Below are positions 13,391 to 63,264 of a stretch of DNA of 64,000 nucleotides, one piece after another. A program made the translations under genes and the position numbers. The DNA lies in the NCBI GenBank assembly GCA_026387405.1, contig JAPLLV010000057.1, positions 1,503 through 65,502 of the forward strand, read 5' to 3'. The stretch's first letter is position 1. Each line of letters begins with the position of its first letter. The notes beneath the pieces were generated by a model that was not told the DNA's origin, ran no database searches, and saw only the letters and a list, made by a program, of their open reading frames with translations. Source of the DNA: Candidatus Omnitrophota bacterium. Its GTDB lineage: Bacteria; Omnitrophota; Gorgyraeia; Gygaellales; Profunditerraquicolaceae.

Positions 13391-13432
13391 TCTAGACCCG
13401 CGGTGGAAAGATGCTTCCACCGCGGGTCTGGA
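13391..13432. repeat. REP-like palindromic hairpin (family CCAGACCCGCGGTGGA)
   Basis: tctagacccgcggtggaa / agatgc / ttccaccgcgggtctgga: inverted arms with one mismatch. Confidence 0.7.
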
Positions 13433-13440
13433 ACTGGTCC

Positions 13441-13555
13441 ATATTGTTCGAGCGAGCCCTGAGCGAAGCGAAGGGCGAGTCGAGAACAGGCTCTGTTACT
13501 TCTCGACTCCGGCCTCGCTTACGCTCGGCCTTCGCTCGAAGAATAAAAAAGCCGC
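13441..13555. repeat. interspersed repeat module (ttgttcgagcgag...gagtcgagaa...cttcgctcgaagaataaaa), related to copies at 49196-49290, 19966-20058 and 59931-60013
   Basis: Shares the CGCTCGAAC / TTCTTCGAGCG / TCGAGAAG sub-motifs with those loci. Confidence 0.4.
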
Positions 13556-13612
13556 CGAGTCCCTACCGGAATGACTGTTTCAAAGAAAGGAAAAACCCGC
13601 CGAAAAAAAAGC

Positions 13613-13641
13613 TTGACAAATCGTAAAAAAATACATAAGAT
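13613..13641 (+). promoter_or_regulatory. sigma70-like promoter (-35 TTGACA, 17-bp spacer, -10 TAAGAT) with downstream direct repeats
   Basis: TTGACA at 13613-13618 and TAAGAT at 13636-13641. Direct repeats TATCAAATA x2 and TTCAAAG x2 lie between the promoter and the ATG at 13703, forming a possible operator. Confidence 0.4.
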
Positions 13642-13702
13642 AGTGTCACTTCGTATCAAATATGTTCAAAGTATATCAAATAGGTTAAGAGAGGTTCAAA
13701 GC

Positions 13703-13924
13703 ATGCAAGACATTAACGATTATTTCCTAAAGGAGGTTGAGATGCAAAAGGCATACCTGTCTACACAGGAGGTCGCTAAGGTCCTGGGGATATCCAAGCA
13801 GACCCTCCTGCGCTACGAAAAGAGGAAGATCTTCCCTAAGCCGAAACGTAACCTCATCAACAAACGCAGGGAATATTCCATCCAGGATATCGAAAAGTTA
13901 AAGACGATCATAGGGAGGAGATAA
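13703..13924 (+). CDS. small helix-turn-helix DNA-binding protein (MerR/excisionase-like HTH)
   Basis: ...LSTQEVAKVLGISKQTLLRYEKRKIFPKP... is a classic HTH. ATG at 13703 is preceded by AGAGAGG. The track ORF starts further upstream at 13571. Confidence 0.6.
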   Translation: MQDINDYFLKEVEMQKAYLSTQEVAKVLGISKQTLLRYEKRKIFPKPKRNLINKRREYSIQDIEKLKTIIGRR

Positions 13925-13932
13925 TTACGCCG

Positions 13933-15453
13933 ATGGGATTCCTCCAGCAGAAGAGGATAATGAGCCTGGACATCGATGAGTCTTTCGTCGTGGCTAGAGA
14001 ATTGACAAAGAGAGGCGCTCGTATATCACTGGGGCGCCACAGCACCCTATCCAGCCTAAGCGAACTTATAAAAGACCCCTCGCTTAAGTTTAAAGATGAA
14101 GGCGTAGTCATTAACGCCCCGACCCAGATCGTATACTTTCGCAGCTTCGCTATTAACCCTGGGTTATCGAAATTATTGAAATTGAAAAACAGAAAGTCCC
14201 GGGAAAAAGAAATATCGACTTTTATTGCCCGGCAGAATCTTCCCATAAAATTAGAGGAGTGCTACTGGACCATATTCATTCTAAATGACAACTTGAATCT
14301 TGTCGCTGCCAGAAAAGAGATCATAGAGAGGCATATCGCAATAGTGGAAAACCTGGGATTGAGGGTAGTAGGGGTTATACCTTCGATCGTGTCGCTGTAC
14401 AATGTCTTTATATATAATTATCCAAAGAATAAGAACCGGTTTGCCCTTTTGAATATAAAGAGTTCCGCGAGCGATATGATCATCTATGAGGCCAGGCATT
14501 TATGGATATGCCCTATTTCTGTAGGGTCTCATACGCTAAGACAGGATGAATCTGCGGGGGAGAAATTCTCTCTGGAGATCCAGCGCACTCTCAATTCTTA
14601 CTATATACAGAATAACGCCAGGGAAAAGAGTATTCTTCCGTTTTACCTAAGCGGCCAGGATCTGTTTTCGAGCCTGGCATTCTCCCTGAAAAAGGCCCTG
14701 GGAGAGGTCGAGCTTATAGAATTCGAGCCTTTTAAAAATGTCGTCTTCCCGAAAGATTCCAAGGTTAACCGCCAGGTAAGCACCTTGAGCCTGGGGTTAG
14801 GCATTACGTATTTCCGGATGCCGCAAACGATAAATGTCAATCTCCTCCGGGAGAAGATGCTTAAGGCGCAGCATCTTAACCAGGTTAAATTATTTAAAAA
14901 GATATCCATACCGCTTATGATAATCAGTGTTTTGATCCTGGGGCTGGTGAATATCAACCTTATAAAAGATGTTAAGGATCAGATTTCATTATATAAGCAA
15001 AGTAATTTATATGTTTCTAAGATTTTGCCTGAATTGAAATTGCTAAAGTCTCAGAAGGATAAGTATCAGAAACCCCTGGATTTCCTGCGCGGCAGGCTCA
15101 ACCGCCAGATACTTTTCCTCAAGGCGCTGGCTGCTATTTCTGAAGGCAGGCCTAAGACCGCGGAGATAAGGGAATTTTCTGCCGAGGTGAAGGACGCAAA
15201 ATTGCAGGTCCTTCTTTCCGGTACCGGGCCGTCATACGCCGAGATCAACGAGTTCCTGAATAATATCAGGAAAAACGAAGAGATCAAAGAGACTAAGATC
15301 ATTGCTTCAAGCGCTGCGGGAGGCGAGAGTTCCGGAGGGCAGATTAATTTTAAATTACGTTTTGAAATGCCGGTTCCGGAACCAGTCTCGGTTAAGGCGC
15401 AGGCTGAGAATACCACAGCTGTCAAGAATGTGCAAGGAACGGCTAAGAAATGA
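13933..15453 (+). CDS. putative PilM/PilN-like fusion (cytoplasmic actin-like domain + TM + periplasmic coiled coil) of the pilus assembly platform
   Basis: 506 aa; a mid-protein TM segment (ISIPLMIISVLILGLVNINLI) is followed by a coiled coil, and the position between pilC and the secretin fits. The N-terminus is not a canonical PilM, so the assignment is tentative. Confidence 0.45.
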   Translation: MGFLQQKRIMSLDIDESFVVARELTKRGARISLGRHSTLSSLSELIKDPSLKFKDEGVVINAPTQIVYFRSFAINPGLSKLLKLKNRKSREKEISTFIARQNLPIKLEECYWTIFILNDNLNLVAARKEIIERHIAIVENLGLRVVGVIPSIVSLYNVFIYNYPKNKNRFALLNIKSSASDMIIYEARHLWICPISVGSHTLRQDESAGEKFSLEIQRTLNSYYIQNNAREKSILPFYLSGQDLFSSLAFSLKKALGEVELIEFEPFKNVVFPKDSKVNRQVSTLSLGLGITYFRMPQTINVNLLREKMLKAQHLNQVKLFKKISIPLMIISVLILGLVNINLIKDVKDQISLYKQSNLYVSKILPELKLLKSQKDKYQKPLDFLRGRLNRQILFLKALAAISEGRPKTAEIREFSAEVKDAKLQVLLSGTGPSYAEINEFLNNIRKNEEIKETKIIASSAAGGESSGGQINFKLRFEMPVPEPVSVKAQAENTTAVKNVQGTAKK

Positions 15454-15529
15454 ACCCCGCACCTTCTAAGGCATTCATCGGAGGGCTCGGAGGGATGAGT
15501 AAACTGCTGAATAAAAAAGAAGGTGCGGG

Positions 15530-16639: not shown

Positions 16640-19600
16640 GATATAAAAGCTATCTAAATTTTCGTCATTGCGAGCCCCGAAGGGGCGAAGCAATCAAATC
16701 TGAGATTGCTTCGTTTCGCTCGCAACCTTCGGGATTGCTTCGTCGCCTGCGGCTCCTCGCAATGACGATACCGATAATTTTCTCCCTGTTGTTAGGCCAT
16801 TCTGCGGCAGTTGAGAATGTGGCGACTGGTGATAATGTGACAGAGCTTAAGTTGGCCAAGGAGTTGGCCAGGCAGGAAACTCAAACCAAGAAAGAAGATC
16901 TGCGCCGCCAAAAAGAGGACGAGAAGAGGCGTAAGCTCCAGGCGCAGGCCAAAGAAAAACAAGAATTGCGTAGACAAAAGATATCGCAAAAGAAACGGCA
17001 GCAGGAAGAATTGCAGGCTAAAAAAGAACAGCAGAAAAGGCAATTAGAAGAGTCTAAGGAAGAGGAGTTGGCGCGGGAACGCGAGCGCCAGTGGCAATTG
17101 GCCGAGGAGCAACGGCAGCTGCAGGAGGATCTCGAAGAGAGAGGCCTGCAGGAAAAGAGGCACAAAGATGCGCAGGAGCAGCTAAAAGAAGATGTCCGGC
17201 AGGCAGACAAGCAAAAAGCAGAGGAGCTCCGGCAGCAGTTGGCTGATCAAAAGAAATATGAGCAGTATGAATTAATGCAACAAAAAGATGAAGAGGCGAA
17301 GAGGCTGGAGGAGCTCAGGGAACAGATAAAGGTCAGGGACGAAAGGCATATCTGGCAATTGGCCCAGGATAGAAAAGAATTAGAGCACCAGTTAGCCGCC
17401 GCGGATCTGGAGCGGCAGTTAAAACAGGAGGCGGCGCAAAAGGCAAAGGAACAGGCCAGGTTAGAAGCCCGGGTCAGGGAAGAAGACCGCCGGAAGCAAG
17501 AGGAGATCCAAAGACAGCAAAGGATAGATCAGCTGGCCGGGCAGAAGAAGCTGCAAGAGAAGAAGCAGCAGGAATTAAAGGCCGAGGTCGGCCTTAAAGA
17601 AGAGGTGCGCCGCAGCAGGGAGATGGAAGAGAGGCAACATACTTATGATGAGCTGGCCCAACGGCGCGTAGCGCAGTTAAATAGATTGGAATTCGCCCGG
17701 CTGAGCAGGGAAGAGGCCGAAGCCGAATTAAAGATCAAACATGAAGAGAAGTTAAAAGCGGAGGTTTTAGAGAAGCTGCGCAGGGAAGAAGGACAGGGAC
17801 AGATAGTCCAGGAGCGCTTGCAAAAAGAAGAAACGGCGAGGCAGAAGAGGGAGATTGGGCTGTCTGTTACCAAAGAAGAAGCCGCTAAAACTATTAAAGA
17901 GGCAAAGGCCGGGGAAGAAGAACGCTTGAAAAATATAACAGAAGAAAAAAAGCGCCGGTCGGAAGAAGCTGTCCAGAAGAAACAAGAAGAGCTAAAAATT
18001 TTGGCTGCCGCCAGAGAGCGCCGGGAGCGGGAATTGAAGGCAAAACAAGGGGGGTTGGCCGCGAAAGAGAAAGAACTACAGGAGAAACTCAAAGCCTCTG
18101 CCCTTGAAGCAGTGCAGGGCAAGGCCATGACCGAGGTGATGCTGGCCAAACAACGCGAGGACAACGCCAAGATAAATAAAATCGAGCATCTCTGGCGTAA
18201 ATCCAGGAAACTCTACGCCGAAGCGAAATACGAAGAGGCCATAAAAATGTTCCAGGAGATCATAGTCCTTGAAGGAAACCCGCGCGTAAAATACACCCCT
18301 TACGCCAAGATGTATTTAGAGAAGGCCCAGCAGAAGATCGAAGAACAAAAGAAATACGCGGCCGAACAGAATATAGCGCTGATGGATAATGAAATGAGCC
18401 GCCAGGTGCTCACCAAACAGATGCCTCCATACCTCGAACCTCCGCAGAAGACCGAGATCAAGGGTTTCACGGACGAGGAGCGCCTGATCGAGATGTCGCC
18501 TGTCAGGAAGACACTGCAGAAGAAGATCACCTTGGATTTCGACAAGTTAGATTTAAAAACGGTGATTGCCTTTTTATCGCAGGAGTCCGGGGTAAATATT
18601 ATCGCCTCGCAGAAAGTTCTGGAGATGGGGCTTAAGGTGACCGCGCGTTTCAAGGATACCGCCGCCGAGGAGGCGGTAAAATATATAACCAAGAGTTTAG
18701 GCCTTATCTACCGTATTGATAAAGACCTGATTTGGATCGCCCACCCGGAGGAGATCGCCAAGGAACCCCTTGAGACCCGGGTATATTATCTGAATAAGGG
18801 GGCGGGTTTATTTACGGAATTTTCCCCTATCTCGTCAGGTTCTTCAAGCGGCGAAACAAGCCTTGGAGGCAGTTCCGCGCAGATCACCAAAGTCCGCACC
18901 CTGGAAGATACCCTGAAGGACGCGATCCCCTGGCCTTCGGATTCCAAGCTTGTTTATGACAAGCGCGTGAACGCGCTCCTGGCGCGTAATACCCCGCAGA
19001 ATTTGCAGATGCTGGAAGATATACTTTTCAGCGTAGATGTCACGCCCTACCAGATCCTTATCGAGGCCAGGTTCATTGAAGTCGAAGTCGACGATACCAA
19101 GGAGTTTGGTTTGGAATGGCAATTCAACAACGATTTCGCGCTCACGTCCGCGTCTAATAAAGGCGGCAAAGCCAAAACCGTTATTACGAAGAATAGCGGT
19201 GTTGATTTCTCTACTTTCGCCCGCGCCGCAGAAGGATTAAACTTTACTTATCAGGGGTTGTTGACTAACCCGCAATTCCAGACCGTCTTACACGCGCTTT
19301 CAGAATCAAAGAAGATCAAGACCCTTTCTTGTCCGCGCATAACTACCTTGAACAATCAGCTGGCTACGATGAAGGTGGTTGACGAATGGATCTATCCCAC
19401 GCGGTATGAGTATGAAATTGTCCAGGTGGATTTAAACGGCGACGGGCTTTTTACCGGGGCGGGTGAGACGACATACAAAAACGTGCCCAAGGATTTCTTG
19501 CGGCGCGATGTGGGTATCCTGCTTAAGGTGGTTCCTTCCATGGGCTCGGATAGAAAGACCATCAGCCTTTCCTTGATCCCGGAAGTAAGCGAAGGTACTG

Positions 19601-19890: not shown

Positions 19891-19892
19891 AA

Positions 19893-23796: not shown

Positions 23797-24347
23797 ATGA
23801 AGAAAAATTTAACAAGGGGTTTCACATTGATTGAAGTGATGATCGCAGTTTCCATTTTTACGGTGCTTATGGCCATTATGGCCGGCATTATTTTCGGGCT
23901 CTTTAAGACCATGCGCCAGGGAGAAGATATATTGAATAAGGAACAGAGACAGAGGATGTGTTTTTCGCGTATAAGCAGAGACATCTCCAGCTTATCTAAG
24001 GCAGCGCCGCCAAATTTATCTTTTAAGGGCGAACAAAACAGTTTTTTTTTATCTCGGCGCGGGAGGATAGCGTGGTGGAAGCCAGGTATAGCTTTATTCC
24101 CGGCGTTTCAAGTATTATGCGTTATTATGACACGGCGGTGGACTATGATGAAACCACATACCAGTCAAGCGACGTCTGCCTGGACAAGCTGGCGGACTGT
24201 AAATTTAGCTACAATGACGGCACTGCCTGGAGGGATACCTGGGATAAGGATGCAGGGAGCCATCCGAGCATGGTAAAGATAACTTTCAGGTTCAATGATG
24301 AGGAAAAAGAGAGAGATTTTGAGGTTAATATACCGGTGAGCCCATGA
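23797..24347 (+). CDS. prepilin-type pseudopilin (GspJ-like C-terminus) with apparent frameshift at a T9 homopolymer (24042-24050)
   Basis: N-terminal class-III signal MKKNLTRGFTLIEVMIAVSIF (ATG 23797, frame 1). After the T9 run the protein continues only in frame 3 (...ARYSFIPGVSSIMRYYDTAVDYDETTYQ...AWRDTWDKDAGSHPSMVKITFRFND...), ending at 24347. Confidence 0.6.
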
Positions 24348-25936
24348 AAAAATATAAACGCCGCAGCCGCATAGGGGGCCAATCGCCCGCCATTCTGAAA
24401 AGGATGGCGGGCTTTTTATTTGCCTGTTTAAACAGGAATAAAACATTAATTATATTAATAAGTTATGTATTTTTAACGAGTTATCTGGTTTACATTGTTG
24501 ATTCCGGTTTTACCGCCGAGACAAGCAGCGCTTCGTACACAGTAGGCCTGCTTACCTTTGTCAACGGCTCGGGGAGCGCCTCTTCGACTAATATCCTGCT
24601 GGAACATTCGATCCTCGGGGATATTGTGGCTACGACTCAGATGTCCAGCGATAAATACGGAGTGGATACCGGCCAGGTTTCTTTGATGCAGCCATTAGGC
24701 AAGGAGAAAATAGAGCTGATTTCCGATTTGAGGGCGCTCACAGGTGTCGCGGGGGTCACCATAAAAGAAGCGGCTTGGCAGAAGCATAATGCCCCTTATT
24801 TTTACTGGCACATAGATACCGCGCGTTCGAGCCTGCTTAAAGGCGTTTCTGTGGCTTTAGACAGGACGCCCGATGAGACCATTGATACCGATAATGATTT
24901 TTATCAATTTGCCGATAATAGTATTTCTTCCGGCAAGCACACCTTTTATGTTATGCCGATTATCGCAAGCGGCCCATACACGGATAATACGCTTAAGTTC
25001 GATATCTGGGTGGATACCGAACCGCCGGTAATACGCAACGCCTTACCGGTGGCCGGTTCTCTTACATCTAACGGAAAAATCCCGATAAGCTGTTTATTGT
25101 CCGACCCTGATTCCGGATTGGATATGAATCTGACCAGACTAAGCTTAAACGGGTCCAACGCCGCGTTCACTTATGACGACAAAAAACAAACCCTTAGCTA
25201 CGCGCCTGATTCCGGTTATCCGGAAGGGAGGAACGCGGTCCTTTTGACCGCTTATGATCTAGTAGGGAATTATATTACGAAGGGTTGGGATTTTATTGTG
25301 GATACGCAGCCGCCGTCAGGAAGCATTTTGATTAATAACGGCGAAGCAGTGACTTCTTCACCTCATGTCTTTTTAAACCTTGACACGCAAGATGTGGTTT
25401 CGGGAGTAAGAAATGTTTATATTTCCAATGACGGAGTGTTCGATACGGAACTAAACCATCCGTATCCTTATAGCGCGATAATTTCTGATTGGCTCCTCAA
25501 CGAGCCGGCTGTTGACGGCCCCAAGACCGTATATGTGAAATTTGATGATCAGGCCGGTAATCTCTCCGAGACTTATAGCGCCGGAATTGAGCTTAAGCTT
25601 CTCGTTCCGCGCACCAGGATCATTTCCGGTCCGGCGAGCGTTACTAATGAGACAACCGCAGAATTTAGATATGAGGCCACAAAGCAAAATTGTAAATTCA
25701 GCTATAAGCTGGATAACGGCGAATGGTCTGTCTGGTCGACCGAGCAGGCAATCGATTTTACGGGCCTGCCCCTGGGTAACCACTATTTTTACGTTAAGAG
25801 CGGACTGGACCTAAACGGCAACGGTGAGATAGGCCTTGATGAAGAGGATCCTACGCCCGCGCAGTGGGTGTGGACCATTACCAACGAAGACGAATTAGGA
25901 AAACAAAAACGTAAGACGTTATTCTGGCGTCGTTAA
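24344..25936 (+). CDS. membrane-anchored surface protein with Ig/Fn3-like repeats (hypothetical; pilus-associated position)
   Basis: N-terminal TM LIILISYVFLTSYLVYIV. Repeated ~100-aa modules begin DTEPPVI / DTQPPSG. 530 aa. Confidence 0.45.
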   Translation: MKKYKRRSRIGGQSPAILKRMAGFLFACLNRNKTLIILISYVFLTSYLVYIVDSGFTAETSSASYTVGLLTFVNGSGSASSTNILLEHSILGDIVATTQMSSDKYGVDTGQVSLMQPLGKEKIELISDLRALTGVAGVTIKEAAWQKHNAPYFYWHIDTARSSLLKGVSVALDRTPDETIDTDNDFYQFADNSISSGKHTFYVMPIIASGPYTDNTLKFDIWVDTEPPVIRNALPVAGSLTSNGKIPISCLLSDPDSGLDMNLTRLSLNGSNAAFTYDDKKQTLSYAPDSGYPEGRNAVLLTAYDLVGNYITKGWDFIVDTQPPSGSILINNGEAVTSSPHVFLNLDTQDVVSGVRNVYISNDGVFDTELNHPYPYSAIISDWLLNEPAVDGPKTVYVKFDDQAGNLSETYSAGIELKLLVPRTRIISGPASVTNETTAEFRYEATKQNCKFSYKLDNGEWSVWSTEQAIDFTGLPLGNHYFYVKSGLDLNGNGEIGLDEEDPTPAQWVWTITNEDELGKQKRKTLFWRR

Positions 25937-25944
25937 GCGTGTAA

Positions 25945-25988
25945 TTCCAGACCCGCGGTGGATGCATGCTTCCACCGCGGGTCTGGAA
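25945..25988. repeat. REP-like palindromic hairpin, perfect (ttccagacccgcggtgga / tgcatgc / ttccaccgcgggtctggaa)
   Basis: Lies between the stop of the upstream gene (25936) and the ATG of the giant gene (26003). Confidence 0.8.
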
Positions 25989-47868: not shown

Positions 47869-47880
47869 CTCATTTTAATT

Positions 47881-48677
47881 AGGGACAGCGACTATTTTTC
47901 CCGGCATTCTTTGGTAATTACTGAAATATTTCCGTTAGATTTTCCTTCCTTTTGCGTCTGTTAATAGTAGAAGGGAGGGATATACCATGCCTCGGATTGG
48001 CAGAGTAGTAGCTGTGGGTTTACCCCATCACATTACGCAAAGAGGAAACTATCAGCAAGATGTATTTCTTGAGCCAGATGACAGGAGGCAATACCTTAGC
48101 TGGATTAGAGAATATAGTCTAAAGTACAGCCTTTCCATTTTGGTCTATTGCCTGATGCAGAATCACGTGCACTTTATCGCTATCCCAAATGAAATTGATT
48201 CCCTGGCTAAGACATTCAATGCCGCTCATATGCGTTATTCGCAGTACTTTAACAAGAAGCTGAAGCAGCGAGGGCATCTCTGGCAAGGGCGTTTCTATTC
48301 TTGCGTATTAGACGAACCTCATCTTTTGCTTGCCGCCCGCTACATTGAAAGGAACCCTGTGCGCGCCGGCCTTGTAAAAAAACCGTGGCAGTGGCCTTGG
48401 TCAAGCGCGATAAGCCATGTCAATGGGAAAGAGAACGGTCTTATTGAACTTGGCGATCTTCTTGGGATTATAGGCATGTCATGTCCTTCATGGGAAAAAT
48501 ACATTGATTCCCCAGAAGAGAATAATTCCTTGCAGCGTATAAGAAAACATACCCTTACCGGGCATCCTTTGGGAACAATAGCATTTATAGAAAAACTGGA
48601 AGCAAAATTCGGCAGAAGGTTGTGTGCATTACCGATAGGCAGGCCGAAGAAAAACTAAGAAAATAGTCGCTGTCCCT
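47881..48677 (+). mobile_element. RAYT/IS200-like unit bounded by 18-bp perfect inverted repeats
   Basis: The left arm agggacagcgactatttt (47881-47898) and right arm aaaatagtcgctgtccct (48660-48677) are exact reverse complements. They enclose the transposase gene 47987-48658. Confidence 0.65.
47987..48658 (+). CDS. REP-associated tyrosine transposase / IS200-like Y1 HUH transposase (COG1943 family), copy 1
   Basis: ...GLPHHITQRGNYQQDVFL...ILVYCLMQNHVHFIAIP... (HxH motif) ...RYSQYFN... (catalytic Y region), similar to E. coli YafM-type RAYTs. Confidence 0.85.
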   Translation: MPRIGRVVAVGLPHHITQRGNYQQDVFLEPDDRRQYLSWIREYSLKYSLSILVYCLMQNHVHFIAIPNEIDSLAKTFNAAHMRYSQYFNKKLKQRGHLWQGRFYSCVLDEPHLLLAARYIERNPVRAGLVKKPWQWPWSSAISHVNGKENGLIELGDLLGIIGMSCPSWEKYIDSPEENNSLQRIRKHTLTGHPLGTIAFIEKLEAKFGRRLCALPIGRPKKN

Positions 48678-48756
48678 ATGTACCAATTGCAAATAAGGCT
48701 TTGGCAGAGCAGGATTAAAAAAGGTTCAATTATGCGCAAAGCGTTAATTCCGCCGT

Positions 48757-48772
48757 CACCGCGGGTCTGGAG
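48757..48772. repeat. REP-like motif, single arm (caccgcgggtctggag)
   Basis: 99 nt downstream of RAYT copy 1, immediately upstream of ORF 48775. Confidence 0.6.
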
Positions 48773-48774: not shown

Positions 48775-49194
48775 ATGATTAAAAAAATCACCGCAGAGAA
48801 TTTTAAACATTATGGCAGGGTAATTGAATATGCAGGCAAGCCAAAAAGCGGCCGGCATAGCCTTTTTCGCATTATAATGAGAGAGCCGCGGGAGTCTGGC
48901 TGGAGAATAGCCTATCTGTTGGTGCGGGATAAGGCCATCAGGCGGCTGGAGCAGCACCTGCATACCTACGAGAGCTTTGAACCGGTCAAAGGCAGAGCGC
49001 TTTTGTATCTATCTGCAACTAAAGACCTCCGGAAAATAGAGTGTTTTCTCCTGGATAAACCGGTGGTGCTATATAAAGGCATCTGGCACGGCGTGGTGAC
49101 GTTGGGCAGGGAATCAGAGATAAAGATAACCGAGAATGCCCGGGTGAGGTCGTCTTACTGGAGTGTCGGAACTGTTCTAGGCGGGAGAAGGTAA
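48775..49194 (+). CDS. cupin-fold protein resembling ureidoglycolate lyase (AllA-like); function uncertain
   Basis: ...FKHYGRVIE...LEQHLHTYESFEPVKGRALLYLS...VLYKGIWHGVV... parallels AllA motifs (YGDVIE / LERHPLGTQAFIPMKG / NYHRNVWHH). Confidence 0.4.
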   Translation: MIKKITAENFKHYGRVIEYAGKPKSGRHSLFRIIMREPRESGWRIAYLLVRDKAIRRLEQHLHTYESFEPVKGRALLYLSATKDLRKIECFLLDKPVVLYKGIWHGVVTLGRESEIKITENARVRSSYWSVGTVLGGRR

Positions 49195-49195: not shown

Positions 49196-49290
49196 ATATT
49201 GTTCTCCCTGCCTGCCTGCCTGCAGGCAGGGACTCGGTAAAAAATATTCTTCGAGTGAAATCGAGAAGAAGATTTTTTACCTCGCTCGAA
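49196..49290. repeat. composite interspersed repeat (ctgcctgcc..ggcaggcagggactcgg hairpin + ttcttcgagtg..tcgagaag + cctcgctcgaacaata)
   Basis: Near-copy of 59896-60013; sits just upstream of tRNA-Pro. Confidence 0.55.
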
Positions 49291-49392: not shown

Positions 49393-49470
49393 CGGGGAGT
49401 AGCTCAGTTTGGCTAGAGCGTTTGGTTCGGGACCAAAAGGTCGTGGGTTCAAGTCCCACCTCCCCGACCA
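49393..49470 (+). tRNA. tRNA-Pro (anticodon CGG)
   Basis: Cloverleaf folds by hand: acceptor cggggag/ctccccg, D-stem gctc/gagc, anticodon stem tttgg/ccaaa with loop ttCGGga, T-arm gtggg-ttcaagt-cccac, discriminator A, encoded CCA. Confidence 0.85.
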
Positions 49471-49498
49471 TTCTAAAACGCCGCCTTTTATAGATCCG

Positions 49499-52315
<2,817 letters not shown>

Positions 52316-52324
52316 GAAAAATTT

Positions 52325-52430
52325 ACGTCATTGCGAGGGCGCCTTTTGCCCGAAGCAATCCCTCCTGAAAGCGAGATTGCTTCCCGCCACGCTTCGCTCG
52401 CGGCTTCGGCTCTGACCGCTCGCAATGACA
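52325..52430. repeat. RPE-like MITE, copy F
   Basis: acgtcattgcgagggcgcc...gaagcaatccctcctgaaagcgagattgcttc...gctcgcaatgacaac. Confidence 0.7.
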
Positions 52431-52439
52431 ACTGTGACT

Positions 52440-53075
52440 ATGATCCTGGAAACCCTTAGTTTAGGCGCGATAGAGACTAATTGCTATGTCCTGGCGGTTC
52501 AAGAAGGGGCCGGCGCTGTAATCATCGACCCCGGGGCAGAGGAGCGCAAAATAAGGGCAGTGCTGGCAAGGTATGATCTGCATCCGGAGCTGGTGGTAAA
52601 TACCCACGGCCATTATGACCATATAGGCTGCGACGACAAATTCAATGTGCCGGTTGCGATACACAAAGACGATGTCTCTTTTTTGAAAGATCCCATGCTT
52701 AACCTGTCCGGGATGTTTTCTGTTCCTTATAAAACAGATGCCGAGATAATACCCCTGGAGGATAAACAGGTTATAGAGCAGGGCGGGATAACCTTAGAGG
52801 CCTTGCATATACCCGGACATACGCCTGGAGGCATCGCTCTTTTATTGAAGAGCCCGCAGAATAATATCGTTTTCACCGGGGATACATTATTTTGCCGGGG
52901 AATAGGCAGGTCCGATTTAGACGGGGGAGATGGGGCGCTGCTTATTCGCAAGATAAAAGAAAAATTGTTCAGCCTCCCCGACAATACGATGGTTTATCCC
53001 GGCCACGGTCCATCTACTACGATCGGCGAAGAAAAACAGCACAATCCCTATTTCCAGACCCGCGGTGGAGGTTAG
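52440..53075 (+). CDS. MBL-fold metallo-hydrolase (hydroxyacylglutathione hydrolase-like)
   Basis: Metal-binding motif VNTHGHYDHIG, later HIPGHTPG and PGHG. The track start 52425 lies inside MITE F; ATG 52440 is more likely. The last 8 codons overlap a REP arm. Confidence 0.75.
   Translation: MILETLSLGAIETNCYVLAVQEGAGAVIIDPGAEERKIRAVLARYDLHPELVVNTHGHYDHIGCDDKFNVPVAIHKDDVSFLKDPMLNLSGMFSVPYKTDAEIIPLEDKQVIEQGGITLEALHIPGHTPGGIALLLKSPQNNIVFTGDTLFCRGIGRSDLDGGDGALLIRKIKEKLFSLPDNTMVYPGHGPSTTIGEEKQHNPYFQTRGGG
53052..53069. repeat. REP-like motif, single arm, overlapping the 3' end of the MBL hydrolase gene
   Basis: ttccagacccgcggtgga. Confidence 0.6.
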
Positions 53076-53157
53076 AACGTGGTAAAAAAGGAAAGAATCT
53101 GAAAAAAAGGCGTTAGATTTCATCACTCCTTACGTCTTGTAATATAGGGGGTGATAT

Positions 53158-53793
53158 ATGTCTTATAGAAAAACGCCTTTGGTTGAAGGTAATGTTTATC
53201 ATGTTTACACTAGAAGCATTGCAGGGTATGTAGTTTTCAGCGGCGAACGCGAGTATCATCGTGCGTTGGAGACAATAAATTTCTACGTTGCAGAACATCC
53301 GCCTAGTAAATTTTCTTCCAGACCCGCGGTGGAAGTGGATAAAGGAGAAAAGCTGGCTCGGATAATCGCCTATTGCTTGATGCCTACACACATACATTTG
53401 GTTCTGCAGCAGTTGAAAAAGAATGGAATTTCTCGGTTGATGAATTTGGCGTTTAACAGTTACAGTTCCTATTTCAATAAAAAACATAACAGGAGGGGCC
53501 CGCTTTGGGAAAGCAGGTTTAAAGTCGTGCCTGTAGAAAGCGACGAACAGTTACTACATCTGACCAGGTATATTCATTTAAACCCGGTGACTGCTTTTTT
53601 GGTAAACAGTCCTGAAGGATGGACATATTCCTCTTATCGTGAATACCTCGGTCTTGTGGAAGAAAGACAAAGAATCTGTGAATTCTCCAATTGTCTTGAG
53701 ATTAATGCTCTGGAGTATCAGCGTTTTGTTTGCGATCGCATCGGTTATCAACGGGAATTGGCCAGGATAAAAAATCTACTTATTGACGAATAA
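53158..53793 (+). CDS. REP-associated tyrosine transposase / IS200-like Y1 HUH transposase (COG1943 family), copy 2
   Basis: ...YHVYTRSIAGYVVF...IIAYCLMPTHIHLVLQ... (HxH) ...SYSSYFNKKHNRRGPLWESRF... It carries an internal in-frame REP arm at 53316-53335 (peptide SRPAVE). Confidence 0.85.
   Translation: MSYRKTPLVEGNVYHVYTRSIAGYVVFSGEREYHRALETINFYVAEHPPSKFSSRPAVEVDKGEKLARIIAYCLMPTHIHLVLQQLKKNGISRLMNLAFNSYSSYFNKKHNRRGPLWESRFKVVPVESDEQLLHLTRYIHLNPVTAFLVNSPEGWTYSSYREYLGLVEERQRICEFSNCLEINALEYQRFVCDRIGYQRELARIKNLLIDE
53316..53335. repeat. REP-like motif, single arm, inside the RAYT copy 2 coding sequence
   Basis: ttccagacccgcggtggaag, shares the extended form ...ggaagtgg with the copy at 53808. 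Confidence 0.6.
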
Positions 53794-53807
53794 ACCTTTA
53801 TTTTTCC

Positions 53808-53826
53808 TCCAGACCCGCGGTGGAAG
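53808..53826. repeat. REP-like motif, single arm, just 3' of RAYT copy 2
   Basis: ctccagacccgcggtggaagtgg. Confidence 0.6.
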
Positions 53827-53852
53827 TGGGGAAATAACCCATTTTTAACGGT

Positions 53853-54740
53853 ATGAAAGAATTTATTGAGATGTTTCTGAACTATCTTTCCGTGGAGCGG
53901 GGCCTGGCCCGTAACACGATACTCTCTTATAAGGATGACCTTAATATCTATATGGATTTCCTGGCTAAAAAGAATATCGACGCCCTCGCCCGGACTACCC
54001 GCAGCGATATCACTAATTTCATGCTTGACCAGAAGGATAAGAGCATGGCGGCTAATTCCATTGCCCGGCGCCTGGCGGCGATAAAATCCTTCCACCGTTT
54101 TTTATTCCGGGAGAGGATTCTGCAGGCCGACCCGACCAGCCTTATTGAATCTCCCAAGCTTTGGAAAAAGATACCCGACGCGCTCTCGCTCAGCGAGGTG
54201 GAGTCGCTGCTTAGTCGGCCAAACCTGCGGCAGACACAGGGGATCCGCGATAAAGCTATCCTGGAAACTCTTTACGCCACGGGCATGCGTGTTTCCGAGG
54301 CAGTAAACTTGAGGGTCGACGGCGTTAATCTAGACATAGGTTTTTTGCGCTGTATCGGCAAAGGCAACAAAGAGCGCGTGATCCCTTTGGGGAGAAAAGC
54401 CATTATCAGTATCCAGCGTTATCTGAAAGTTTGCCGTCCTCGGCTATTAAAGCAAAGGGAGTGCGAATTTTTGTTTGTCAGCCGGCTGGGCAAGAAGATC
54501 TCGCGGCAGTCCATCTGGAAACTCATAAAAAGATATGCCAAAGACGCCAGGATAAAAAAGACGATTAAGGTGCACACCCTGAGACACTCCTTTGCCACGC
54601 ATCTTTTAGAGAGAGGCGCGGACTTGCGTTCTGTCCAGGAGATGCTCGGGCATGCGAATATCTCCACTACGCAGATCTACACGCATATAAATAAGGACAG
54701 GCTTAAGGCTATACACAAGATGTTCCACCCCAGGCCGTAG
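53853..54740 (+). CDS. site-specific tyrosine recombinase XerC/XerD family
   Basis: ...HTLRHSFATHLLERGADLRSVQEMLGHANISTTQIYTHI... with catalytic R..H..R..Y; N-terminal SAM-like domain. Confidence 0.85.
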   Translation: MKEFIEMFLNYLSVERGLARNTILSYKDDLNIYMDFLAKKNIDALARTTRSDITNFMLDQKDKSMAANSIARRLAAIKSFHRFLFRERILQADPTSLIESPKLWKKIPDALSLSEVESLLSRPNLRQTQGIRDKAILETLYATGMRVSEAVNLRVDGVNLDIGFLRCIGKGNKERVIPLGRKAIISIQRYLKVCRPRLLKQRECEFLFVSRLGKKISRQSIWKLIKRYAKDARIKKTIKVHTLRHSFATHLLERGADLRSVQEMLGHANISTTQIYTHINKDRLKAIHKMFHPRP

Positions 54741-58122: not shown

Positions 58123-58560
58123 ATGTTCTACGGAGAATACCTACATACTATCGACCGTAAAGGCCGCCTGATTTTGCCTGCCAAATTTCGCGAAGTAGCC
58201 AAGGCAAATTTTATCGAAAAGTTTTATATTACCCGAGGCCTGGATAAATGCCTCTTTATGTTTTCGGAAGAGGAGTGGCGTACGCAGGAATCCAAATTCA
58301 AGAATCTCTCTTTTACCAAACAGGAATCGCGCACCTTTAACCGGCTTTTTTTCTCCGGCGCCATGGAGCTGGCCGCGGACAGGCAGGGGAGGATATTGTT
58401 CGCGCAGTACCTGAAGGATTACGCCGAGATAAAGAGAGACGTGGTGATCGTGGGGGTATCCAATCGTATTGAGATTTGGGCAAAGGCAAAATGGCAAGAA
58501 TTTTATGGCGCCTGGCGGCCTTCTTTCGAGGAGATCGCCGAGAAACTGATAGATGTTTGA
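58123..58560 (+). CDS. mraZ: transcriptional regulator MraZ
   Basis: Two MraZ-type repeats (DRKGRLILPAKFRE... and DRQGRILFAQYLKDY...). First gene of the dcw cluster. Confidence 0.9.
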   Translation: MFYGEYLHTIDRKGRLILPAKFREVAKANFIEKFYITRGLDKCLFMFSEEEWRTQESKFKNLSFTKQESRTFNRLFFSGAMELAADRQGRILFAQYLKDYAEIKRDVVIVGVSNRIEIWAKAKWQEFYGAWRPSFEEIAEKLIDV

Positions 58561-58639
58561 GAGCGGACTTTTGCCCCGCCTGCGGCGGGATGTCGCTGGA
58601 TGGGCAAGCCCGTTGGGTGCTCCATGTGTTGAAGAGATA

Positions 58640-59533: not shown

Positions 59534-59534
59534 T

Positions 59535-59903
59535 ATGAAACTATCAAGGTTCTTATTATTGGTGCTTCTTTTTACCGTCGTATCGCTTTTGTATGTGTTT
59601 CAGCAAACGGAGATCATTCGCCTGGCGTATCTGGAGCAGAAACGGTCTACGGTATTCCAGGGGCTTTTGGATAAAAATACGGTCTTGCAATACAACATTA
59701 AAAAGAGCGCTTCGCTTGTGCGTATAGGCAGCAGGATCTCCAAGGATGGGGATTTTCAGATGCCTAATAGTTACCAGCTGGTCAGGCTGGAGCGTCCCGC
59801 TTCGCAATCAAGGGCGATCGCGCGCCTGTTCAATAGGCCCAATGTCTTCTCGCGTATCTTTGCGGTAAAGAGAGAGGCAGAGGCATATACCATTAATCCC
59901 TAG
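59535..59903 (+). CDS. ftsL: cell division protein FtsL-like (small bitopic membrane protein)
   Basis: MKLSRFLLLVLLFTVVSLLYVFQQ TM plus a short coiled coil, in the canonical position between rsmH and ftsI. Confidence 0.55.
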   Translation: MKLSRFLLLVLLFTVVSLLYVFQQTEIIRLAYLEQKRSTVFQGLLDKNTVLQYNIKKSASLVRIGSRISKDGDFQMPNSYQLVRLERPASQSRAIARLFNRPNVFSRIFAVKREAEAYTINP

Positions 59904-60013
59904 CGTTCTCCCTGCCTGCCGGCAGGCAGGGACTCGGCGCCTGCGGCGCCTCGCTCGAACGATACGTTTTATTCTTCGAGCGGAGCGAACGAAGTGAGCG
60001 TAGTCGAGAAGAA
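59896..60013. repeat. composite interspersed repeat (ccctgcctgccggcaggcagggactcgg + cctcgctcgaacgata + ttcttcgagcggagcgaacgaagtgagcgtagtcgagaag)
   Basis: Near-copy of 49196-49290 and of the 3' half of 19893-20058. Confidence 0.6.
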
Positions 60014-60062
60014 AAAGCCTGGGATTTCGGATTTAATACGTTAATAAGGTTACTATAAATTA

Positions 60063-61793
60063 GTGCATATTAGCGACTACCACCGCCGCTTCAATGCGGT
60101 ATTCTTCCTATTCTTCCTATTTTTCTTTTTCTGCATAGCCCGTCTTTTGTTCATCCAGTTTTTTCGCGGCCGCTACCTTGCCGGCGTAGCCAAAAAACAA
60201 CAGAATTTATTCGTGGAATTGGAGGCGCGCCGGGGAGCTGTCTTCGATGTGAACCTCAAGCCCCAGGCCGTGAATGTTTCGGTAGATTCCCTCTACGCCT
60301 CAAGCAGCGAGATACCGGACAAGATAAAACCCGCGCTCATCAGGCAGCTTGGCGCTATCTTGGGCGTGGATCAGGGTTATCTAAAGGATAAGTTATTCCG
60401 TAATAAATCTTTTGTCTGGCTGGCGCGAAAAATACCTTCGGCCGAGAGCGAGTCCGTGAGGCGCTTAAATGTAAGGGGCCTGGATTTTATCAAAGAGAGC
60501 AAACGCTGTTATCCTAACGGCTATTTGAGCAGCCACGCTTTAGGCTTCGCGGGATTGGATAATACGGGTCTCGAGGGGCTCGAGCTGCATTATAATAAAT
60601 ATTTAAAGGGCGAACCCGGGTGGACCTTTATCCTGCGGGACGCGCGCCAGAAAAAACTGGATCTCTCCGACAGGGTGCTTATGCCGAAGGACGGGTATAA
60701 CCTTGTCCTGACCATCGACGAAGTCATCCAGTACATAGCCGAGAGGGAACTGGACAAGGCCTTCCGCGAGCATCATGCCAAGGGTGCCAGCATCGTGGTG
60801 ATGAATCCGCATACCGGGGCGATCCTCGCCATAGCAAACCGGCCTACCTATGATCTAAATGAATATTCTTCTTCAGCTAAGGATGCCCGGCGTAACCGCG
60901 CGATCTGCGATATGTTTGAGCCCGGTTCGGTATTCAAGATCGTTACCTGTTCAGCAGTGCTTGAAGAAGGCAAGGTTAAGGAGAGCGATAGATTTTTCTG
61001 CGAGAACGGGGCCTGGCAGGTGGCAGGGCATGTCCTTCACGACCACCAGCCGCATGGCTGGCTTAGCTTTGCCGAGGTGATCGAGGAGTCCAGCAATATC
61101 GGCACCGTAAAGGCAGCCCAGATCCTGGGGCAGGAATTACTTTATAAATACGCGCGGCTTTTTGGATTCGGGTCCAGGTCCGGTATCGACCTGCCGGGAG
61201 AGATCGGGGGGATGTTGAAGCCGACTAGGTTCTGGTCTAAGACATCGATCACCGCCGTGCCTATGGGGCAGGAGGTGGCGGTTACGGCGTTACAATTAGT
61301 CACGGCCATCTCGGTGATCGCCAACGGCGGACAACTGATGAAACCTTACGTGGTAGATCAGATACGGGATAAATATGAAGAGCCGATCAAAAGATTCTCT
61401 CCGCAGTTAGTGCGTAAGGTTATTTCTGTGGATACCGCAAGCCGTGTCAAGGCAATACTTACGGCGGTAGTGGAGAGCGGCACGGGAAAAATGGCGAAAG
61501 TCCCCGGTTATTCCGCGGCAGGTAAGACCGGCACGGCCCAGAAATTAGAGCCAAATGGCGCTTATTCGCACAATAAATTCACCGCCTCATTCATAGGCTT
61601 TGCTCCGGCAGAAGACCCGGTAATAGCAGTGGCTGTGGTATTGGATGAGCCGCATCCTTACTATTTCGGCGGTGTGGTGTCTGCGCCGGTGTTTAAAAAC
61701 GTCTGCGCGGATGTATTACGCTATCTAAGGGTAAAAGAGACTCAAAATCCGACCCCGGCACTTGTCTTAAATGAGACTAACACATCTGATTAA
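60063..61793 (+). CDS. ftsI: penicillin-binding protein (class B transpeptidase, FtsI/PBP3-like)
   Basis: N-terminal TM; SxxK (SVFKIVT), SxN (EESSNIGT) and KTG (KTGTAQK) motifs. Confidence 0.9.
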   Translation: MHISDYHRRFNAVFFLFFLFFFFCIARLLFIQFFRGRYLAGVAKKQQNLFVELEARRGAVFDVNLKPQAVNVSVDSLYASSSEIPDKIKPALIRQLGAILGVDQGYLKDKLFRNKSFVWLARKIPSAESESVRRLNVRGLDFIKESKRCYPNGYLSSHALGFAGLDNTGLEGLELHYNKYLKGEPGWTFILRDARQKKLDLSDRVLMPKDGYNLVLTIDEVIQYIAERELDKAFREHHAKGASIVVMNPHTGAILAIANRPTYDLNEYSSSAKDARRNRAICDMFEPGSVFKIVTCSAVLEEGKVKESDRFFCENGAWQVAGHVLHDHQPHGWLSFAEVIEESSNIGTVKAAQILGQELLYKYARLFGFGSRSGIDLPGEIGGMLKPTRFWSKTSITAVPMGQEVAVTALQLVTAISVIANGGQLMKPYVVDQIRDKYEEPIKRFSPQLVRKVISVDTASRVKAILTAVVESGTGKMAKVPGYSAAGKTGTAQKLEPNGAYSHNKFTASFIGFAPAEDPVIAVAVVLDEPHPYYFGGVVSAPVFKNVCADVLRYLRVKETQNPTPALVLNETNTSD

Positions 61794-63264
61794 AATATTA
61801 GAGGCAAATCCGAGTATCCCGGAGGCCTGTGATTTTCAGGTCAGGGGCATCGCCTGCGACTCCAAAAAGGTGGGTGAGGATTTTGTCTTTGTGGCTATAA
61901 AGGGGGCAAGGGCAGACGGCCACAAATTCATCGAGGAAGCTATACAGAGAGGCGCGCGCTTTATCGTGGTCCAGAATTCCAGACCCGCGGTGGAAGAAAA
62001 AAGGGGGATATTTTCGTATAAAGATAATAAAAAAGTAATATTCATAGAAGTTAGCGATACAAGAAAGGCGCTTGCGGACCTGGCAGCGCGTTTTTATGAT
62101 CAGCCTTCGCAAAAACTTAAGGTCATCGGCATTACCGGCACCAATGGCAAGACTACGATCTCGTATTTATTGGAAGCCATATTGAAAAAAGCGTCCTTCA
62201 GTTCCGCGGTAGTCGGGACTATCAATTATCATTTTAAGGATAAGATCATTGCTGCCAAAAACACCACTCCCGGGCCGCTTGAACTTCAGGCGCTGCTTGC
62301 CGAGATGCTTAAAGAGAAAACGGAGTACGTGGCTATGGAGGTTTCTTCGCACGCGCTGGACCAGAGGCGCGTTGAAGGCATAAATTTTCATGCCGCGGTG
62401 TTTACCAACCTGACCCAGGATCACCTTGATTACCATCTGACTTTAGAGGAATATTTTTTGGCCAAGGCAAAATTATTTCAGGGTCTTAGTCCCGGGGCAT
62501 TGGCCATAGTGAATAATGATGATCCTTATGGCCGCAGGATAAGAGATCTCACCCCCGCCAGATTTATCGGTTACGGCATAGATAGTCCGGCAGAGGTCAT
62601 GGCCGTTGATCTGGAATGCGATATTAACAGGACGCGGTTTAAGATCAGGACGGATAAACAAACCATAACTTTAGAAAGCCGCCTGATCGGCAAACACAAT
62701 GTCTACAATATATTAGCAGCGGCAGCCTTTAGTCTGGAAGAGGGCATAGAAGTAAAAAACATAAAAGCGGCAATTGAGGATTTCGTTCTTGTCCCGGGCA
62801 GGCTGGAGAGGATAGAAACTCCTGCGGGATTTTCGGTGTTTGTGGATTACGCGCATACTCCGGACGCGCTTTTTAACGTGCTTACGGCATTGCGCAATGT
62901 ATCTTCAGGCAGGTTGATCCTGGTCTTTGGCTGCGGCGGCGACCGCGATAAGACCAAAAGAGCGAAAATGGGTCAGGTGGCCTCTGAGCTCGCAGATCAC
63001 GTTTTTATTACCAGCGATAACCCGCGCTCAGAGGCCCCGGAGGCTATTATCTCTGATATTATAAAAGGGGTGAAAAAAGAGAACTATGCGGCAGTCGTGG
63101 ACCGCCGTCAGGCCATAGAGAAGGCCCTGGGGACAGCCAGGGAAGGGGATATTGTGCTTCTGGCAGGTAAAGGCCATGAGGATTATCAGATATTTAAAGA
63201 CAAGACCATTCATTTTAGCGACCAGGAAGTAGTGCGTGAATGCTTAAGGGCGCTTAATAAATAA
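61771..63264 (+). CDS. murE: UDP-N-acetylmuramoyl-tripeptide synthetase
   Basis: ...GITGTNGKTT... P-loop, ...HFKDKIIAAKNTTPGPLELQALLAEM..., ...AMEVSSHAL... Mur ligase domains. A REP arm is embedded in-frame at 61977-61996. Confidence 0.9.
   Translation: MRLTHLIKILEANPSIPEACDFQVRGIACDSKKVGEDFVFVAIKGARADGHKFIEEAIQRGARFIVVQNSRPAVEEKRGIFSYKDNKKVIFIEVSDTRKALADLAARFYDQPSQKLKVIGITGTNGKTTISYLLEAILKKASFSSAVVGTINYHFKDKIIAAKNTTPGPLELQALLAEMLKEKTEYVAMEVSSHALDQRRVEGINFHAAVFTNLTQDHLDYHLTLEEYFLAKAKLFQGLSPGALAIVNNDDPYGRRIRDLTPARFIGYGIDSPAEVMAVDLECDINRTRFKIRTDKQTITLESRLIGKHNVYNILAAAAFSLEEGIEVKNIKAAIEDFVLVPGRLERIETPAGFSVFVDYAHTPDALFNVLTALRNVSSGRLILVFGCGGDRDKTKRAKMGQVASELADHVFITSDNPRSEAPEAIISDIIKGVKKENYAAVVDRRQAIEKALGTAREGDIVLLAGKGHEDYQIFKDKTIHFSDQEVVRECLRALNK
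61977..61996. repeat. REP-like motif, single arm, inside murE coding sequence (translated SRPAVE)
   Basis: ttccagacccgcggtggaag. Confidence 0.6.

Follow-up and report, generated by a model that had tools for sequence, protein, structure and literature searches.

A 64,000-nucleotide stretch of the genome of a Candidatus Omnitrophota bacterium (assembly GCA_026387405.1, contig JAPLLV010000057.1, positions 1,503 to 65,502; hereafter the window, at its full length) contains a 19-nt hairpin repeat together with a gene for an HUH/Y1 enzyme that is bordered by this repeat and carries a further copy of it. We call this gene RAYT2, RAYT denoting a tyrosine transposase associated with repetitive extragenic palindromes (REPs). 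We consider it probable that the repeat is a short, atypical REP, that RAYT2 is its cognate enzyme, and that the two together form a REPtron-like unit, which would be laid out as a hairpin, a gene with one in-frame internal hairpin, and a second hairpin. An initial annotation of the window had proposed a REP/RAYT system with two RAYTs. The proposal holds for RAYT2, as indicated by hairpins in 10 of 10 related loci, by covariation of their stems, and by a structural match to PDB entry 4ER8. It does not hold for the other Y1 gene, RAYT1, which has 19-bp inverted repeats of its own.

A hairpin repeat dispersed over 50 kb

The 16-nt core CCAGACCCGCGGTGGA, searched for with up to two mismatches, occurs in 10 copies at eight sites of the window. 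The expectation from 100 dinucleotide-preserving shuffles was 0.04, and none of the shuffles reached 10 copies. Eight of the 10 copies are identical over the 16 nucleotides, and the consensus across all copies is TTCCAGACCCGCGGTGGAAG. The sites comprise two inverted doublets, five perfect singlets on the + strand (cores at 49780, 53054, 53318, 53809, and 61979), and one decayed copy on the − strand, for a total of 10 units spread across 50 kb. A further match, at 17396 with 2 mismatches in 15, was taken as a chance occurrence. The putative REP units and RAYT2 are as follows (ORF, open reading frame; MBL, metallo-β-lactamase; REPIN, two inverted REPs in a larger hairpin).

13390 to 13433, both orientations: inverted doublet, REPIN-like, made of TTCTAGACCCGCGGTGGAA, a 6-nt spacer, and TTCCACCGCGGGTCTGGAA, with CTAG in place of CCAG in one arm; intergenic, with a GspK-like gene before it and a MerR-like gene after it
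25945 to 25988, both orientations: inverted doublet with perfect arms, 9 nt past the stop of ORF 24344-25936 and directly 5' of the Shine-Dalgarno sequence and ATG (26004) of a giant gene
48755 to 48770, − strand: decayed copy with 2 mismatches, loop and 5' arm retained, 3' arm changed from GTGGA to GTGAC; between the right inverted repeat of RAYT1 and the ORF at 48775
49778 to 49796, + strand: singlet in the acyP-ligA interval, with its core 9 nt past the acyP stop (49771) and just ahead of the ligA start
53052 to 53070, + strand: singlet about 90 to 105 nt upstream of RAYT2, forming the end of the MBL hydrolase gene
53158 to 53793, + strand: RAYT2, HUH/Y1 enzyme of 211 residues, with H78-I-H80, W117, and Y138 in RYIHLNP
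53316 to 53335, + strand: copy within RAYT2, in frame, encoding S54-RPAVE
53807 to 53826, + strand: singlet 14 nt downstream of the RAYT2 stop, ahead of xerD
61977 to 61996, + strand: copy in frame in murE, encoding SRPAVE at about codons 69 to 75

Each unit is a complete small stem-loop on the top strand, TTCCA-g-ACCCGCG-g-TGGAA, in which a 5- to 6-bp stem (TTCCA/TGGAA) closes the 7-nt loop ACCCGCG. The flanks of the singlet at 49778 lengthen the stem through G-T wobble pairs. The doublets, with spacers of 6 to 8 nt, fold as 18- to 21-bp hairpins of −24.4 kcal/mol (13390 to 13433) and −24.5 kcal/mol (25945 to 25988), with folding z scores of −10.2 and −9.7, respectively. If transcribed, they would give very stable stem-loops, which may serve in mRNA protection or partitioning. 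The flanks of the window copies were searched for a guide or target sequence and yielded no more than T-richness on the 5' side and two extended subfamilies: the copies at 49778 and 53052 have about 27 nt in common, and the copies at 53807 and 53316 (internal to RAYT2) share 28 nt at 96% identity. All genes of the window are on the + strand, the whole window has positive GC skew (+0.08), and the five perfect singlets are all on the + strand, sense to the surrounding genes.

These results revise several statements of the initial annotation. Its eight motif copies stand as eight sites and correspond to 10 arms. The two perfect or near-perfect hairpin doublets were recovered, both at about −24.5 kcal/mol, and the elements that it described as single arms turned out to be complete stem-loops rather than half palindromes. 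It had placed direct arms at 53052 and 53808 around the second transposase gene and one arm inside it, in agreement with the copies located at 53052, 53807, and 53316. Arms within ORFs were also found, in frame in murE and RAYT2 and at the end of the MBL hydrolase gene, as were arms beside ligA, acyP, and the giant gene (49780, past the acyP stop and before ligA; 25945 to 25988, before the giant gene). The proposed role as terminators is not indicated by the sequence: no T-tract follows either doublet, and an intrinsic-terminator scan called neither doublet hairpin, its one match (13424 to 13440) being a minor 5-bp stem that overlaps one arm.

RAYT2 is an HUH/Y1 protein most similar in structure to TnpAREP

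RAYT2 and RAYT1 both pass the Pfam PF01797 cutoff (23 bits), with scores of 38.9 and 48.9 bits, respectively, and Y1_Tnp was the only family reported for RAYT1. The initial annotation was correct in identifying two Y1 (HUH) genes, since the HUH motif (HIH and HVH) and the tyrosine of Y---NP are intact in both. It had also considered that the genes might be pseudogenes; on alignment, the catalytic HUH and Y residues are present in each. Throughout the alignment of the RAYT2 family, the HUH, W, and Y residues are invariant. The AlphaFold2 model of RAYT2 (predicted local distance difference test score [pLDDT], 87.8; predicted template modeling score [pTM], 0.85) had as its top PDB match in Foldseek 4ER8_A, E. 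coli TnpAREP with a REP hairpin (E = 5.5e-8), followed by the transposases of ISDra2 and IS608.

The RAYT2 family comprises 2634 clusters at E ≤ 1e-10 in a 90%-identity collection, mostly of one contig each, and 175 representatives at E ≤ 1e-30 in a 50%-identity library. Its named members belong to the Omnitrophota, the Elusimicrobiota, the Planctomycetota (Scalindua, Brocadiaceae), the Auribacterota (Tritonobacter), and one metagenome-assembled genome (MAG) of the Actinomycetota. The RAYT2 locus is identical in three Logan contigs, one of which occurs in 19 samples, and was seen in a single context. The order MBL-RAYT-XerD is retained in locus L123, which encodes a protein 68% identical to RAYT2, and distant relatives occupy other gene neighborhoods.

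A side observation concerns locus L131 of Candidatus Tritonobacter (Auribacterota), in which positions 7905 to 12296 share the LigA, MBL hydrolase, and XerD neighborhood of window positions 49791 to 54740. The Y1 gene lies between ligA and the MBL gene in L131 and between the MBL gene and xerD in the window.

The hairpins accompany RAYT2 orthologues and vary with the protein clade

RAYT2 has one hairpin per side on the strand of the gene and a third hairpin inside it. We compared this arrangement with 10 loci (L123 to L125 and L128 to L134) that encode relatives 53 to 68% identical to RAYT2 and span at least four phyla. Hairpins were present beside the orthologous gene in all 10 loci, mostly on both sides, L128 and L129 being less clear.

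L123 (syntenic): TGCAg-ACCCGAG-gTGCA; four tandem copies upstream (at the end of the MBL gene), two internal copies at the same protein position, one copy downstream
L124: CCAATTACAA-ACCCGCA-TTGTAATTGG; on either side of the gene
L125 and L132: stems on TTCCAA-ACCCGCA-TTGGAA
L130: inverted doublets flanking the gene
L128 and L129: variants of the type-A hairpin
L131, L133, and L134 (distinct protein clade): second hairpin type (type B), CCCACC-TCGTA-GGTGGG

The loop ACCCGCA is common to seven loci, with one variant (ACCCGGT), and the stems covary. In an alignment in register of 12 distinct type-A hairpins, 88% of the cells were paired, a fraction that is somewhat inflated, as the hairpins were picked after their palindromy was visible, and changes on both sides were found in six of seven pairs. 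The covariation score was 0.647, versus 0.176 in shuffles; it was matched by none of 500 shuffles, and slid controls gave at most 0.108. The loop ACCCGC[A/G] and the adjoining pairs (C-G, A-T) are nearly invariant across type A, and the three innermost stem pairs are conserved across the protein family, whereas the outer stem covaries, indicating that the conserved determinant is the loop region and that the outer stem is structural. The type of hairpin tracks the protein clade, as would be expected of a cognate pair (PMC6006769; PMC8266576). Doublets beside the gene, as in L129, L130, and L133, are found in some of the relatives.

Several further features of the hairpins were observed in these loci. 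Type-B hairpins, CCCACC-(T/G)CGTA-GGTGGG, are located at about 9929 and at 10693 in L131, at 9855 to 9941 and 10663 to 10749 in L133, and at 9957, 10670, and 14103 in L134. They display GTAG where the loop meets the 3' stem, and each side of the gene in L133 has such hairpins in REPIN-like inverted pairs, about 57 nt apart. A kinship of the minus-strand motif of the window, CCACCGCGGGTCTGG, with the type-B hairpin, CCACCGCGTAGGTGG, was considered and left as a possible coincidence. Head-to-tail arrays of hairpin cores with periods of 13 to 15 nt, in which the 3' arm of one unit doubles as the 5' arm of the next, occur in L123 (1316 to 1376 and 1628 to 1660) and in L128 (9872 to 9906, 10163 to 10197, and 10688 to 10716). 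L123 also contains, at 193 to 210, the hairpin GTACAG-ACCCGCG-GTGTAC, which combines the loop of the window with another stem about 1.1 kb from the TGCAG-ACCCGAG-GTGCA copies, indicating that more than one subfamily is present in that genome. Upstream of the RAYT2 homologue in L125, an exact 18-nt direct duplication of TAACCATGTTCCAAACCC (7732 to 7767) has a first copy that ends in the hairpin loop just after ACCC; this duplication may be the footprint of a break within the loop.

Hairpin copies within coding sequences

The copy internal to RAYT2 encodes residues 54 to 59, in a variable linker located N-terminal to the HUH motif. Residues 53 to 60 form the sole stretch of at least three residues with pLDDT values below 50 and were modeled as a disordered loop. 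An equivalent peptide is found in the closest relatives in the same linker and frame (RPAV, RPEV, KPAS, and KPAL forms). This was confirmed at the DNA level for RPEVRRPEV in L123 and KPASPKPAS in L128; KPAL or SKPALE is present in eight other relatives (protein sequence only), and SKPALE matches TCCAAACCCGCATTGGAA. The pattern [KR]P[AE][LVS] occurs 14 times in 3549 linker residues, versus 9 times in 22661 residues elsewhere in RAYT2-family proteins, an enrichment of about 10-fold.

In murE, the copy is read in the same frame as in RAYT2 (SRPAVE) and falls in the N-terminal domain, within a variable loop at the surface. This loop is longer than in 30 of 30 nearest homologues, mostly by 8 to 9 residues, consistent with the in-frame insertion of some 24 nt. 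The copy at 53054 supplies the last eight codons of the MBL hydrolase gene (QTRGGG*). The homologue in L131 ends in …NAFVRM*, and the tail of the L123 homologue is encoded by tandem repeats (…ADPRCADPRCADPRCR). REPs inside genes have already been described (PMC3733652), and in-frame REPs within tnpAREP genes are known in subclass 2.4, between HuH and Y (PMC6006769).

A possible mechanism and alternative explanations

If RAYT2 and the hairpins form a REPtron-like unit, the enzyme would probably recognize the sequence of the loop and inner stem and the shape of the remaining stem. By analogy with TnpAREP and IS608/ISDra2, it would bind the folded top-strand hairpin in single-stranded DNA, probably on the lagging-strand template, cleave via a 5'-phosphotyrosine on Y138 with an HUH-bound metal, and then rejoin the strands. 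The outcome would be hairpins copied or moved to new sites, amounting to at least 10 units in 50 kb. Copies are tolerated in frame in disordered or variable protein loops (RAYT2 and MurE) and at the 3' end of the MBL gene. The lagging-strand template is expected for IS200-type chemistry (PMC6006769). The five perfect singlets agree with this mechanism in that they are on the lagging-strand template, the G-rich + strand, although five copies are few.

The hairpin has proliferated in the lineage of the window. A doublet identical to that of the window was found at 911 to 954 in L120, a 1.4-kb metagenome contig (JGI Ga0163209_1050856) that is otherwise dissimilar to the window and in which the doublet extends the 3' end of an rpiB-like ORF. 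This was the sole real doublet among seven matches of the 19-mer in metagenome contigs, the others looking like chance. The matches listed for the bare 16-mer in genome contigs included only chance singletons from unrelated taxa, and the one match in viral contigs was chance-like.

A set of results weighs against a REPtron-like unit. RAYT2 (62 bits) and RAYT1 (73.7 bits) both missed the 80-bit cutoff of NF047646 (REP_Tyr_transpos). The GT[AG]G foot is absent beside 10 of 10 window copies, so that a comparison of GTAG-like guide motifs between single arms and doublets, as suggested by the initial annotation, became moot. In E. coli TnpAREP, the GTAG-contact residues are W94, Q95, E100, H101, and R104 (PMC6006769). 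A phmmer alignment to 4ER8 revealed that four of the five are replaced in RAYT2, where W is retained, Q is replaced by E, E100 and H101 by V and V, and R104 by E. The absence of the foot, together with the replacement of these contacts, indicates that recognition must differ from the E. coli paradigm. As isolated DNA hairpins, the single units are weak (−1.2 to −3.9 kcal/mol; z of about 0). Most relatives have hairpins only beside the gene, within about 10 kb on either side, with the exception of single extra copies in L123, L131, and L134; the proliferation may be specific to the lineage of the window, or the gene-adjacent hairpins may be no more than IS200-like element ends. No mobility was observed: comparison of the window with contigs from other samples revealed no gained or lost copy, and a CCTG microsatellite was the sole indel. 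To these points is added the selection of the hairpins used in the covariation alignment.

Part of this evidence would be accounted for by an autonomous IS200-like insertion sequence, of which the hairpins at 53052 and 53807 would be the ends, the element measuring about 775 bp and the other copies being solo ends or miniature derivatives. The gene-side hairpins are indeed direct and on the strand of the gene, as in IS200/IS605, the size is approximately that of IS200, most relatives display only the two gene-side copies within about 10 kb on either side, and the gene neighborhood differs in distant relatives. TnpA proteins of the IS200/IS605 family (IS608, ISDra2) also share with RAYT2 the HUH/Y1 fold, hairpins near both ends on one strand, and a presumed single-stranded DNA mechanism on the lagging-strand template. 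However, the context was the same in every sample with the exact protein, synteny is preserved in L123 at 68% identity, and the LigA-MBL-XerD neighborhood is similar even in the Auribacterota. In addition, RAYT2 has the Y---NP signature of class 2, TnpAREP-like proteins rather than the Y---Q signature of IS200 (PMC6006769), no tnpB adjoins RAYT2 in the window, and hairpins are dispersed without the gene. The family lacks a near-identical multicopy pattern, most clusters being on one contig, and several relatives have REPIN-like inverted doublets beside the gene. We regard such an element as unlikely.

An RNA-level element, in which a transcript stem-loop would be selected as a stabiliser, attenuator, or protein binder and the adjacency of the Y1 gene would be incidental, appears still more doubtful. 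It would be in keeping with the sense orientation of all single copies relative to the surrounding genes, with the G-T(U) wobble stem extensions of two copies, which are functional on one strand only, and with the position of the doublets exactly between genes. The association with RAYT2 orthologues in 10 loci of at least four phyla, with a hairpin type that tracks the protein clade, argues against it, as do the absence of any Rfam family matching the motif (tRNA-Pro was the sole match in the window), the lack of a T-tract after the doublets, and the copies within coding sequences, including the gene of the enzyme itself, which are hard to explain as regulators. A role in RNA would, moreover, be compatible with REPs as a secondary effect. 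Neisseria DNA uptake sequences and Haemophilus uptake signal sequences occur as intergenic inverted pairs and as in-frame single copies. The window presents this same pattern and encodes type II secretion or type IV pilus-like machinery, which would suit a DNA uptake signal or some other protein-binding site distributed chromosome-wide through recombination and selection rather than by a transposase. Such a signal is nonetheless highly improbable, because the stems covary with retention of the structure, which points to a structured element and not to a sequence tag, because the motif changes between close relatives along with the neighboring gene, and because uptake signals would not be expected to flank one gene family so closely and repeatedly.

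Returning to the REPtron-like unit, a bolder proposal goes beyond it, namely that the RAYT2 clade is an undescribed TnpA_Y1 subclass that recognizes, and perhaps nicks, the conserved loop (ACCC^GCA), the internal copy, retained in frame across a subclade, being a protected master or an autoregulatory site. The conserved 7-nt loop, the freely covarying outer stems, and the 18-nt duplication of L125 ending after ACCC would all fit, and we offer it as a speculation whose chances are small. IS608 and TnpAREP read a guide or foot adjoining the hairpin. If the proposal were true, nicking of the loop would be closer to the action of rolling-circle Rep proteins at origins than to that of IS608 or TnpAREP.

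Comparison with described systems

In the broad definition of Quentin et al. (2018), the system counts as a REPtron, and the general phenomenon, including genic and intra-RAYT REPs, is already established. As in the REPtrons of E. coli (YafM/REP, 4ER8) and Pseudomonas (RAYT/REPIN), a class 2 Y1 HUH gene with Y---NP, seen in one context, has a hairpin on each side, the repeat is dispersed nearby and forms some inverted doublets, the best structural match is 4ER8, and the hairpin type varies with the protein clade. Unlike in those systems, the repeat lacks a 5' GT[AG]G foot, conservation does not extend to the GTAG contacts, the unit measures only some 19 nt with the loop ACCCGCR as its conserved part, the gene-side copies are direct rather than inverted in several loci, and RAYT2-type proteins, of about 215 residues, have an extra C-terminal helical region. 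The host also differs, since it belongs to the Omnitrophota and the relatives are mostly from the PVC group (Auribacterota, Planctomycetota, and Elusimicrobiota), not from the Proteobacteria. Judged by its conserved loop and the missing GT[AG]G foot, the REP is non-canonical. RAYTs are associated with a gene-side 16-mer that is highly abundant genome-wide (Bertels 2017, PMC5581495); here, eight exact copies are present in 64 kb, versus an expectation of about 0. In REPIN systems, doublets predominate; they account here for two of eight sites, next to five perfect singlets.

In-frame REPs in a peripheral variable region of tnpAREP are shared with subclass 2.4 (Bertels group 4; Quentin et al. 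2018, PMC6006769), from which RAYT2 differs by an insert located N-terminal to HUH and by the signature THIH / WE / YIHLNP in place of NH[IFV]H / WQ / YIxNNP. Subclass 2.6 and class 3 have in common with RAYT2 non-GTAG hairpins beside the gene and copies elsewhere in the genome, and class 3 TnpA_Y1 proteins are found in Planctomycetes and Acidobacteria; however, class 3 has Y----Q, and subclass 2.6 has YIH[QN]NP with WQ (PMC6006769). The signature of the RAYT2 clade (THIH / WE / YIHLNP, about 215 residues) appears to fit none of the listed subclasses cleanly, subclass 2.1 being the nearest, and this subclass was reported without REPs (PMC6006769). None of the hairpin types described in the texts consulted is a counterpart of the ACCCGCA-loop hairpin. 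Rickettsia palindromic elements and other genic REPs (PMC3733652) likewise occur as in-frame palindromes in surface loops of functional genes. The inserts found here differ in being far shorter (about 18 to 24 nt) and in having an identified cognate Y1 gene.

RAYT1 and the surrounding region

Two features other than the hairpins were identified in connection with the Y1 genes.

47880 to 48678, + strand: TIRtron-like element outside the REP family, with RAYT1 (47987 to 48658) inside perfect 19-bp inverted repeats
53111 to 53137 and 47933 to 47959, + strand: upstream element common to both Y1 genes, CGTTAGATTT-N12-CGTCT-N2-3-TAAT

The inverted repeats of RAYT1, TAGGGACAGCGACTATTTT, are located at 47880 to 47898 and 48660 to 48678, and the window contains no other copy. 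RAYT1 has 223 residues and is 42% identical to RAYT2 over the core only; its exact protein was found in nine contigs from other samples, all at the same locus. A Y1 gene within terminal inverted repeats, many with GGGGWSAS, defines the TIRYT/TIRtron of subclass 2.1 (Di Nocera et al. 2013, PMC3733652; PMC6006769), for which a C-terminal helix-turn-helix-like domain is typical (PMC6006769). RAYT1 resembles this type by its signature (NHVH / WQ / YIERNP), by the perfect repeats that bound it, and by the presence in these repeats of AGGGACAG, which agrees with seven of the eight positions of GGGGWSAS; it differs by the lack of further copies of the repeats in the window. With its own inverted repeats and a single context, RAYT1 is a separate unit that is not to be counted in the system of the motif, in which it has no evident part.

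The upstream element had two matches in the window versus 0.00 expected and is also present in L123 at about 1400 to 1430. The Y1 genes that share it are only about 29 to 42% identical. Its pyrimidine tract may pair with the Shine-Dalgarno sequence and sequester it. In IS200, a stem sequesters the ribosome-binding site.

The region from 46.1 to 49.4 kb, which had been described as a mobile-element-rich patch, contains one TIRtron and no compositional anomaly. Downstream of ORF 48775-49194, a (CCTG)n tract (49203 to 49218) that is part of the palindrome CCCTGCCTGC…GCAGGCAGGG differs from its counterpart in seven other-sample contigs by one unit, and several contigs with differing (CCTG)n also end at 49285. 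The mechanical acyP ORF (49409 to 49771) overlaps tRNA-Pro(CGG) (49393 to 49470); its Pfam match begins at residue 36, indicating that the true start is downstream of the tRNA. Two giant ORFs, 663 to 7436 (2257 residues) and about 26004 to 46048 (about 6680 residues), are located around a type II secretion/type IV pilus-like cluster that comprises genes for GspF-like (9056), GspK-like (10825), and PilN-like (13933) proteins, a secretin (16636), a GspE/PilB-like ATPase (20097), and a pseudopilin (23698).

Implications

To our knowledge, REP/RAYT systems have been characterized almost solely in Proteobacteria, with outliers in Cyanobacteria and Bacteroidetes. Among the matches listed by a literature search, no paper tied the Omnitrophota to REPs, RAYTs, or IS200. 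What appears to be new is the clade, from an uncultivated phylum, and the form, with a conserved loop, no GTAG, direct gene-side copies, and an internal copy upstream of HUH. As a REPtron-like unit, the present case would extend REP/RAYT to the Omnitrophota and, among the loci examined, to the Auribacterota, Planctomycetota, and Elusimicrobiota. For the annotation of Omnitrophota MAGs, it means that repeat insertions can be the source of peptides like SRPAVE or SKPALE in unrelated proteins and of unusual C-terminal extensions. The 19-nt hairpin and the 211-residue enzyme would constitute a compact experimental pair, and, with the loop rather than a GTAG foot as the determinant, they would provide a clean system for studying how Y1 HUH enzymes choose their substrate and cleavage site.

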